IMG/VR virus record: IMGVR_UViG_2724679557_000005
Span: 26,522 to 90,521 of that record
Source of the DNA: a virus
Taxonomy: Duplodnaviria; Caudoviricetes
Reading direction: 5' to 3' (one strand)
DNA: 64,000 bases
Position 1 is the first letter of the stretch; each line of letters opens with the position of its first letter. The notes beneath the pieces were generated by a model. That model searched no databases. It was not told the DNA's origin and saw nothing but the letters and a program-made list of their open reading frames with translations. The translations under genes were made by a program, and so were the position numbers. Below are positions 15,210 through 16,682 of the stretch, one piece after another.

Positions 15210-16577
15210 CTACTGCTCTACAACTTCTCCTACTAAAGAAAATGATTTAGCTTCAATTATTTTAACTTTAACAAGTTTTCCTATCATTTCTTTACAACCA
15301 TCAAAGTTTACAAGCTTAGCATTTCTTGTTCTACCAGTTAATTTGTTTTCATTATTCTTACTAGTTCCCTCAACTAAAACTTCATATATTTTTCCTTCAG
15401 CAGCTTTATTTCCAACAACAATACCTTCATTAACAGCAGCTACAAGTCTATTAAATCTATCATGTTTAACATCATCTGGAATTTGATCTTCCATTTTATC
15501 TGCGGGTGTGTGATTTCTTCTTGAATATATGAAAGTAAATGCTGCATCATATCTAACTTCTTTTACTAAGTTAATTGTTTCCTCAAAATCTTCTTCAGTT
15601 TCACCTGGGAATCCAACTATTATATCTGTTGAGAATGTTACATCTGGGATTTCTTCTCTTATTTTTTTAGCTAATTCTAAATATTGTTCTTTATTATAAT
15701 GTCTATTCATTTTTTGCAATATTTCATTACTACCACTTTGTACAGGTAAATGTATTTGTTCACAAAGCTTATCGCAATCTCTTATAGCATAAACCACATC
15801 TAAAGTTAAATCTTTAGGATGAGATGTCATAAATCTTAATCTTTCAAGTCCATCTATTTCATTAATTCTTCTTAAAAGTTGTGCAAAAGTAATTTCTTCT
15901 TCAAGACCTTTACCATAAGAATTTACGTTTTGTCCAAGTAAAGTAATTTCTTTATATCCATTAGAAACCAATTCTTTTATTTCATTTTCTATATCTTCTG
16001 GTCTTCTACTTCTTTCTCTCCCTCTAACATAAGGAACTACACAATATGTACAAAAATTATTGCATCCATACATTATAGTAACAAAAGCTTTTACATTGCT
16101 TTTTCTGTCTATTGGAACACCTTCTACAATTTCAGTTTCTTTATCAAAAATCTCTTTAACTTGAACGCCTTCAACTTGAACTCTATGCAAATATTCTGGG
16201 AACTTGTATGCATTATGAGTTCCAAATATTATGTCAACGTAAGGGAATCTACTTAAAATTTCATCTGCCATCCCCTTTTGTTGCATCATACAACCACATA
16301 GAGCTATTATTAAATTAGGATTCTTCTCTTTTTGATTTTTTAATCTTCCAAGATTTCCAAAAACCTTATTTTCAGCATTTTCTCTTACACAACATGTATT
16401 GAAAATTACAATTGAAGCTTCATCTCTATTTTCTGTTTCTTCATAGCCTTGCGACTTAAGCATTCCTGAAAGCTTCTCAGAATCTTCTTCATTCATTTGA
16501 CAACCAAAGGTAGAAATAAAGAAGAATTCTTTTTTATCTATTTTATTTTCTTTTAAAGCGTCTATATCAAAATTCAT
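15210..16577 (-). CDS. miaB: tRNA-2-methylthio-N6-dimethylallyladenosine synthase; first ~25 codons are prophage-derived
   Basis: GCQMN, NTCCVRE, GCMMQ, radical-[12 protein letters not shown]-terminal TRAM domain; attachment junction lies at the Gly-Cys codons (16501-16505). Confidence 0.97.
16484..16528. other. Left prophage attachment junction (host miaB arm plus phage arm), core CAACC at 16501-16505
   Basis: Core repeated at 62335-62339; phage arm GTAGAAATAAAGAAGAATT (16510-16528) is the 18/19 inverted copy of 62309-62327. Confidence 0.88.
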
Positions 16578-16584
16578 TAGTATT

Positions 16585-16682
16585 CCTCCAAGTTTTAAAA
16601 ATTATACTTCTATATTATATCATAATTTAAAGTATAAAATAAAGGTTTGCAAAATAGTGACTTGATATCTATCTTACAAACC
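16585..16682 (-). promoter_or_regulatory. Phage-supplied terminator, extended -10 promoter and RBS driving miaB
   Basis: Minus strand: hairpin GGTTTGTAAGATAG/CTATTTTGCAAACC plus T-rich tail (16644-16682), TGATATAAT (16614-16622), GGAGG (16585-16589). Confidence 0.6.

Follow-up and report, generated by a model that had tools for sequence, protein, structure and literature searches.

The window analysed here is a 64,000-nt stretch of an IMG/VR provirus record (IMGVR_UViG_2724679557_000005), and all coordinates given below are window positions. It contains two pieces of the host gene miaB, which encodes the tRNA i6A37 methylthiotransferase, one at each border of a temperate phage. The live miaB open reading frame (ORF) lies at 15210–16577 on the minus strand and encodes 455 aa. 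Its host part extends from the Cys26 codon (16500–16502) to the stop (15210–16502, minus strand) and comprises the UPF0004, Radical_SAM and TRAM domains. The first 25 codons (16503–16577, minus strand) are supplied by the element, after which the protein continues with CQMN. Upstream from these codons lie a supplied ribosome-binding site, GGAGG (16585–16589, minus strand), an extended -10-like box, TGATATAAT (16614–16622, minus strand), which is predicted from sequence and has no matching -35 box by scan, and a terminator-like hairpin (16644–16682, minus strand) that separates the supplied promoter region from the cargo gene upstream. Together, these elements form the 5´ cassette. The second miaB-like piece, at 62334–62417 on the minus strand, is the stranded native start. 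It consists of 27 codons reading MIKFDDKQLNNVVEQDGDKHFFIETWG, followed by TGA, and is preceded by GGAGG at 62428–62432. A six-frame motif scan of the window found these two miaB-like 5´ pieces only. Beyond the stranded start is a host GNAT-domain gene (63140–64000, minus strand), which was recognised by domain search and by comparison with related loci as the conserved upstream neighbour of miaB.

The sequence CAACC is present at both junctions (16501–16505 and 62335–62339), with a spacing of 45,834 bp, and the Cys codon reads TGT in the live gene versus TGA in the stranded piece. A large serine integrase of 567 aa is encoded next to the right junction (60582–62285, plus strand), and its stop codon is 49 nt short of the crossover. 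The protein contains the Resolvase (PF00239, 7.7e-36), Recombinase (PF07508, 2.4e-25) and Zn_ribbon_recom (PF13408, 1.5e-10) domains in Pfam and matches the integrase family phrog_95 in PHROGs (2.6e-121). A 19-nt arm motif beside miaB has a sole close copy in the window, inverted and with one mismatch, at 62309–62327 beside the integrase gene. Because there are two miaB-like 5´ pieces and one inverted arm copy, the window holds a single element with one attachment-site pair. The initial annotation had reported the two miaB pieces, the shared CAACC and the TGT and TGA codons, all of which are present. It had also placed a prophage with a serine integrase inside miaB, with which the integrase domains, the junctions and the empty-site form described below agree, and had proposed that miaB is kept open with a different N-terminus and a phage-supplied promoter; the intact ORF and the cassette, with its own ribosome-binding site and promoter-like region, bear this out.

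These features are very probably explained by a 45,834-bp temperate phage residing in the miaB gene of a Clostridium, whose serine integrase crosses over at the TG of Cys26 and whose phage-borne 5´ cassette repairs the gene. In this mechanism, the integrase would exchange strands at the TG that opens the Cys26 codon, and one attP arm would sit within the small phage-borne cassette. Integration would join the cassette (hairpin, -10-like box, ribosome-binding site and 25 codons for the leader and strand β1) in frame to the host miaB body. The native promoter, ribosome-binding site and 27 codons would be left stranded beside the integrase gene and closed by a TGA created at the junction. A 5´ module of its own would relieve the phage of the cost that insertion into an expressed housekeeping gene would otherwise carry. 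As in 5´-end target repair, the element replaces the 5´ end of miaB in frame and the ORF stays open. We infer that the phage thereby repairs a conserved target and avoids a cost, and that integration is neither a knock-out nor a switch.

Crossover site and the supplied 5´ cassette

Four arms of 26 positions each were read outward from trial centres within CAACC. With CA as the centre, the P arm on the integrase side (62309–62334) is an inverted copy of the P´ arm (16503–16528) at 21/26 positions, compared with 5–9/26 for the other three centres. The host arms lack this symmetry. The B´ arm on the miaB-body side (16475–16500) encodes QMNEEDSEK, the B arm occupies 62337–62362 of the stranded start, and the two match at 5/26 positions; P and B´ match at 9/26, and phage arms match host arms at 9–18/26. 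The common sequence of attP and attB is CAACC alone, defined at the left junction by sequence and contig branching and at the right junction by sequence. The arm symmetry points to a crossover at CA on the plus strand (16501–16502 at the left and 62335–62336 at the right junction), which is TG on the coding strand and thus the first two bases of the Cys26 codon, where the initial annotation had placed it. This pattern, with a symmetric attP, an attB unlike it and only a very short common centre, is that expected of a large serine integrase, and recombination of attP with attB through a 2-bp staggered cut is predicted from attL, attR and the empty attB. By eye, the motif GAAGAAGATT in the miaB-body arm (16475–16500) is positioned ~5–6 nt nearer the centre than the similar AAGAAGAATT in the phage arms (62309–62334). 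An offset between attB and attP half-sites has been described for serine integrases and may be comparable to this shift.

The host half-site is strongly conserved. Over the 30 nt that follow the TG and encode QMNEEDSEK, the mean majority fraction among the first 24 listed loci is 0.89; most of the variation falls at wobble positions, and the TG is present in 65/65 loci with an intact miaB. Target DNA that is nearly invariant across clostridia would be the attraction of this site, and a half-site conserved in this way would let one attP fit many hosts.

The tail of the 25 supplied codons (EFFFISTFG) also serves as the P´ arm, so the same DNA encodes protein and forms an attachment arm. The hairpin, which was found by folding only, is located just past the stop of the upstream cargo gene and has a 14-bp stem followed by a U-rich run (-15.9 kcal/mol; z -4.83; 0/200 shuffles fold as well). 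The -10 box is a sequence reading. In the supplied upstream regions of other lysogens, a TTTG(T/C)TATAAT box is found ~35–45 nt before the ATG, and the same box is found in the native, stranded miaB upstream regions of other species. The degree of likeness between supplied and host regions varies. In genome G059, the supplied region closely copies that of the host, and in phage phiCT19406C the supplied and host 5´ copies are 92% identical over ~189 nt. In the window, the supplied and native 5´ regions are unalike, and the -10-like box is ~106 nt from the ATG in the native region versus 36 nt in the supplied one. The best reading of the cassette is a miaB 5´ module that was acquired from a clostridial host and transferred to others. 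Its layout, which resembles that of native miaB 5´ regions in sister species, suggests a like-for-like repair, and the cassette would be expected to drive expression at roughly the housekeeping level. The 49-nt gap between the integrase gene and the crossover contains no predicted terminator. The stranded native miaB promoter in the lysogen, or the cassette promoter in the free phage, could read antisense into the integrase gene and dampen its expression.

The chimeric protein retains the conserved features of MiaB. PF00919, PF04055 and PF01938 are all detected above their Pfam cut-offs, and residues 13–453 match the solved MiaB structures 7mjv/7mjz in the PDB (E 1.4e-108). MiaB proteins carry three N-terminal cysteines and a CxxxCxxC motif, whose roles are known from the literature. 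Cys26 is the first cysteine of the N-terminal domain, a residue assigned as a ligand of the N-terminal Fe-S cluster. Across 23 aligned MiaB proteins covering all start types, Thr23, Gly25 and the sequence from Cys26 onward are invariant, and Cys62, Cys96, Cys172, Cys176 and Cys179, which include CxxxCxxC, are, with Cys26, invariant in 23/23. In the AlphaFold2 model, residues 17–24 form strand β1 directly before Cys26 and a helix at residues 28–42, and the supplied β1 residues 17–24 align with those of 7mjv. The phage therefore swaps a poorly conserved leader and β1 and stops just before the first cysteine. Endings of the type S/Q-T-F/Y-G are native in other clostridia, in which stranded starts ending FFFIQTFG and FFIQTYG and loci with ISTFG or ISTYG are found. 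The live ORF is whole in the window and in five other lysogenic genomes (6/6 read). The intact motifs and the modelled β1 strand suggest that the chimeric MiaB is enzymatically active.

Native start, empty site and recurrence

The polarity of the exchange is apparent from the flanks. A GNAT-domain gene is located upstream of miaB and on the same strand in 16/80 related loci fetched. In genome G016, the stranded piece and its 140-nt upstream region are identical to those of the window, yet the adjoining phage is different: its integrase is 53% identical to that of the window, and the live miaB, ~45 kb away on the same contig, has the supplied start MNFDIEKLEKIKVRDGQEFFFIQTFG. Since the flank is constant and the inserts vary, the flank is chromosomal and the inserts are mobile.

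The 27 stranded residues are the exact start of the intact MiaB protein P0121 (109 contigs), after which the body is the same. The same 27 residues also open P0122, P0123, P0126 and P0127. These proteins belong to the closest-relative MiaB cluster (90%; 63 members, of which 40 were read and 15 listed), and the nearest MiaB relatives of the host, whose own miaB body is ~97–98% identical to those of its closest relatives, carry C. botulinum names from their sources. Among the 15 listed members, the native MIKFDD start type accounts for 191 contigs (P0121, P0122, P0123, P0126 and P0127) versus 91 contigs for the swapped types. The latter include the start type of the window (P0125, P0128–P0132 and P0134; 59 contigs), that of G016 (P0001 and P0124; 28 contigs) and a hybrid-looking type (P0133; 4 contigs). 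The body beyond Cys26 is near-identical across these forms, and the first 25–27 residues sort into discrete types. P0133 has a phage-type leader joined to the host-type ending IETWG and represents either a further attP variant or a recombinant of supplied and native 5´ pieces.

The uninterrupted site is also observed in DNA. In runs X1 and X3, some contigs track the miaB body to 16505 and then enter the sequence of the stranded piece (branch at 16505/16506), and other contigs carry the lysogen junction. These contigs derive from mixed samples; they establish that the uninterrupted site exists and say nothing on excision of this prophage. Contigs of X2–X4 leave parts of 16678–16803 uncovered, to which no weight is attached. 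The initial annotation had expected prophage-free relatives to begin with MIKFDD...ETWGCQMN, as the intact P0121-type proteins and the X1 and X3 contigs do. It had named an MNFDID...STFG start in such relatives as the observation that would tell against it, and the intact relatives start with MIKFDD.

Similar arrangements recur in related phages. Relatives of the integrase were found at 16 loci in IMG/VR. All five of those with 68–95% identity and a readable flank have a stranded miaB start, which is of the MIKFDD type in three, MKEEVRDLKYYIETWG in one and MNFDIEKLYSQMASDEKKLFFIQTYG in one. Six of the remaining loci end at the stop codon, one is cut, and four (43–45% identity) continue differently. 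The IMG/VR comparison covers the integrase-side junction only, as 0/5 of these trimmed records contained the miaB body and their far ends gave no left junction. Of 125 genomes scored in the GTDB genus to which the closest genome belongs, 9 encode an integrase relative with 52–68% identity, and 5 more genomes were unscored. A stranded miaB start was found in 6/8 of the flanks fetched and not in the other 2. In 5/5 genomes where it was read, the live miaB start differs from the stranded piece, and in G016 and G046 the live gene is ~45 kb from that piece on the same contig. A class-wide sample contained integrase relatives in 2/399 scored genomes, at 41–44% identity. In one of them, G264 (44% identity; C1:2805400–2806700), the flank is a Mg-chelatase-like ORF, of the ComM/YifB type by reading of its translation, and not miaB; the stretch fetched from G416 is mostly the integrase gene itself, with the flank outside it. 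The specificity for miaB is seen solely for integrase relatives with at least 53% identity, and the position of the G264 integrase beside a Mg-chelatase-like ORF indicates that target choice shifts with integrase divergence.

The C. tetani phage phiCT19406C (NC_029006 / KM983332) provides a named example. Its integrase is related to that of the window, with 73.7% identical nucleotides across 61% of the query. At the start of the record, the integrase gene adjoins a stranded 5´ piece of miaB, and at its end is a supplied piece ending in TWGCQM. The depositors marked a 38-nt direct repeat as attL/attR, and miaB is unmentioned in the record. This repeat is the terminator-like hairpin upstream of miaB, and it is duplicated because the phage carries the 92% identical copy of the host miaB 5´ region. 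Judged from the sequence, the crossover of phiCT19406C is more likely to fall within an identical block of 18 nt, the last codons of which encode CQM, than in the 38-nt repeat.

Two N-terminal types on near-identical bodies were also noted in MiaB proteins with C. neonatale and C. beijerinckii names (P0003 vs P0015/P0135 and P0046 vs P0052), as exemplified by MSLDREIKSKLYFIETWG vs MNFDIEQLKKNKVTEEERKTFFISTFG. Such pairs would be expected if this phage family were widespread in those species; the genomic context is confirmed solely for the beijerinckii-like genome G030.

Gene content of the element and alternative explanations

The element is a Caudoviricetes prophage with a contractile tail and myovirus-type structural genes. 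Pfam and PHROGs matches delimit a lysis and virion module (27219–50283, minus strand), in which homology identifies the endolysin (27219–29147), baseplate (34021–35172), tape measure (37256–39517), sheath (40656–42101), major head (43578–44618), protease (44987–46120), portal (46083–47648), large terminase (47910–49742) and small terminase (49723–50283), all on the minus strand. Homology also assigns an HTH_3 repressor-like regulator beside the integrase gene (60045–60548, plus strand), and ParB-like (53537–54538), ParA-like (55394–56158) and replication-initiation genes (56387–57238) on the minus strand. The phage thus has the equipment of a phage-plasmid at 53537–57238 beside its integrase, yet it is integrated.

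The region between the lysis genes and attL carries cargo on the minus strand. Immediately upstream of the hairpin is a gene of the HATPase_c_3 family (16699–18759; 686 aa; phrog_6203, function unknown). It is followed by a plasmid-like Mob_Pre relaxase (19278–20489), a coupling protein of a type IV secretion system (VirD4/TraG-type; 20464–22023) and an HTH_36/DnaD-like protein (22628–23317), all recognised by Pfam and PHROGs. This block resembles plasmid or mobilisable-element cargo and is unusual in a tailed phage. A 20-nt repeat, 95% identical between its copies at 18772 and 26986, brackets the relaxase cargo region, and a search for nested elements returned short two-copy repeats only. Three GHKL/HATPase-like cargo proteins (686, 253 and 324 aa) are encoded within 16699–18759 and 25163–26939; their PHROG families are functionally unassigned, and their genes may be accessory genes expressed in lysogeny. 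PADLOC gave no convincing defence match for six cargo proteins, the lone row being LmuB on an 86-aa ORF (E 6e-4, 16.6 bits), which is too weak.

Several observations weigh against the interpretation of the locus as a repaired serine-integrase target. A consensus scan of 16400–16800 reported no minus-strand promoter by its criteria and no terminator, and the -10 box was read by eye in AT-rich DNA, where such matches come cheap. None of the three listed RNA runs contained more than 0.10 of the words sampled. Identity alone fails to place the crossover within CAACC, so that CA depends on the symmetry of the arms. The contiguous attP of a free or circular phage gave 0 matches in viral contigs with exact 27-mer and 20-mer patterns, and the 5 matches to an attP-arm 20-mer in metagenome contigs are not in a miaB or integrase setting. 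Mixed strains may account for the presence of both forms in X1 and X3. The native and supplied N-termini have ~9 residues in common, so an effect on activity or stability is possible, and the AlphaFold2 model is of moderate quality (mean predicted local distance difference test score, pLDDT, 72.4; block means 69 for residues 11–20 and 61 for residues 21–30).

The most substantial competing explanation is regulatory, and it is improbable on present evidence. It holds that lysogeny places the expression or activity of miaB under phage control, so that integration and excision toggle ms2i6A and thereby translation; the initial annotation had proposed such a reversible switch. The promoter region and the first 25 residues are truly exchanged, the two 5´ regions are unalike with differently spaced -10-like boxes, and both forms are frequent within one species, at the 191 and 91 contigs counted above. 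Yet miaB is intact in both states, unlike the target of described phage regulatory switches, and no repressor or operator feature was seen. The supplied -10 box matches the native regions of sister species, the supplied region closely copies that of the host in G059 and phiCT19406C, and the hairpin ahead of the cassette would insulate it from phage transcription. The native-type layout and the intact gene therefore leave the proposed switch unsupported. Somewhat less probable still is that the chimeric MiaB is impaired, with the foreign leader and β1 lowering activity or stability and the partial knock-down being tolerated in view of a dispensable miaB. The small number of shared residues, the change from Trp to Phe before the Gly that adjoins the first cysteine, and pLDDT values below 50 around residues 26–28 are compatible with this proposal. 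Against it, the S/Q-T-F/Y-G endings are native elsewhere in the clostridia, and the supplied ORFs have remained intact in every lysogen read, the window included.

Two further proposals concern the structure of the locus. The replacement start might have come from a separate mobilisable element (Mob_Pre/coupling protein/Rep-like, 16.7–27 kb) inserted in tandem at a shared site. The unusual relaxase and coupling-protein cargo, the 20-nt repeat that brackets 18772–27005 and the record of the closest IMG/VR relative, which begins only at the equivalent of 22024, could be taken in this sense. However, no second integrase was found among the cargo ORFs scanned with Pfam, PHROGs and PADLOC, no third miaB-like piece or arm copy is present between the junctions, and the miaB-side arm is the inverted partner of the integrase-side arm, which makes two tandem elements very unlikely. 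The least probable proposal, which we regard as nearly excluded, reverses the polarity: MNFDI...STFG would be native, and the MIKFDD fragment would be owned by the element or be a decayed duplicate. Several close relatives, including the top match P0001, do start with MNFDI, and starts of this type are truly native in the beijerinckii group. The MIKFDD piece, however, adjoins the conserved GNAT neighbour, recurs with an identical flank beside a different phage in G016, forms the intact MIKFDD...CQMN start that is commonest among the listed cluster members, and is read without interruption across the junction in contigs; the discrete start types on near-identical bodies likewise oppose the reversal.

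Comparison with known systems and implications

The arrangement at miaB resembles several described insertions. According to Farrugia et al. (2015, PMC4482086), dusA islands and prophages are inserted by their integrase at the 5´ end of a tRNA-modification gene and supply a substitute β1 strand, with putative -10/-35 boxes before and after integration and the pattern found in many genomes. The dusA islands share with the miaB phage a recurrent, element-supplied 5´ end and β1 of an RNA-modification gene; their integrases are tyrosine recombinases of Proteobacteria, whereas the Clostridium phage in miaB relies on a large serine integrase whose crossover spans 2 bp, and its supplied part can differ much from that of the host (~9 common residues). 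The phage works like the dusA islands but falls outside the DAI tyrosine-recombinase family, because its integrase is a serine recombinase. As described (PMC9144972), the Burkholderia phage JC1 enters the 5´ end of rimO, which encodes a MiaB paralogue, and provides an in-frame ATG that keeps the protein length; its attP and attB overlap by 18 bp, and only six of the first ten residues are altered. Both are temperate phages near the start of a methylthiotransferase gene whose ORF is kept. Compared with JC1, the miaB phage shares 2–5 nt with its target, replaces 25 codons and the promoter region, and cuts in the first Cys codon.

Serine integrases have been associated with a different outcome. 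According to Ambroset et al. (2016, PMC4701971), 29/29 insertions of integrative and conjugative elements (ICEs) with serine integrases disrupt protein genes. The same source describes streptococcal ICEs with single serine integrases in rumA, where rumA and the integrase gene exchange 3´ ends and the reading frame changes. On this description, the rumA ICEs and the miaB phage both use a serine integrase in a conserved RNA-modification gene and exchange a coding end; the swap concerns the 3´ end in rumA, whereas in miaB the 5´ end is replaced in frame together with its own expression signals. The initial annotation had called target repair less familiar for a serine integrase in a protein gene. 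This view fits the streptococcal ICE account (PMC4701971), but 5´-end repair itself is known from the dusA and rimO accounts. phiCT19406C is of the same family and design as the window phage, and differs in that its cassette is 92% identical to the host region over ~189 nt where that of the window is unalike.

In phage regulatory switches or active lysogeny of the comK, mutL or sigK type, the gene is broken while the element is integrated, and excision restores it. The miaB phage likewise resides inside a host protein gene, from which excision would restore the original; active lysogeny breaks its target, whereas miaB is intact in both states in the window and in five lysogenic genomes. An inactive target in the lysogen characterises that class, and with a complete live miaB ORF the phage falls outside it.

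No paper on phage integration in miaB was found in the main texts of open-access literature and preprints; for phiCT19406C, the open-access literature yielded no paper on integration in miaB, and no title on its integration site stands among the 10 listed of 11 papers that name the phage. What is known is 5´-end target repair, and what is new is that it is done by a serine-integrase phage family at miaB across clostridia. Serine-integrase phages, which are usually described as breaking the protein genes that they enter, can carry a full replacement 5´ module and leave the target intact. An attP recognition arm can be written in a coding sequence that must also fold as a β-strand. The exchange explains the discrete MiaB N-terminal types with identical bodies within single Clostridium species, which would otherwise be puzzling for annotation and typing, and it suggests that the att sites of the phiCT19406C record sit on a duplicated terminator and not on the crossover.

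Since the target sequence hardly varies among clostridia, this integrase family also defines a natural attB that is conserved in the genus. More tentatively, and with the chances somewhat against it, the first Cys codon of miaB may be a deeply conserved landing pad for serine integrases across distant phyla, comparable to tRNA 3´ ends for tyrosine integrases, and used by way of a portable 5´ cassette that doubles as an attP arm and is passed between species. Interest in the system would rise if this codon proved to be such a cross-phylum landing pad or if lysogeny measurably changed tRNA modification. If the interpretation is true, a foreign MiaB N-terminus and promoter would be in use in a sizeable share of the sequenced genomes of a species, at about one third of contigs among the listed members of the cluster.

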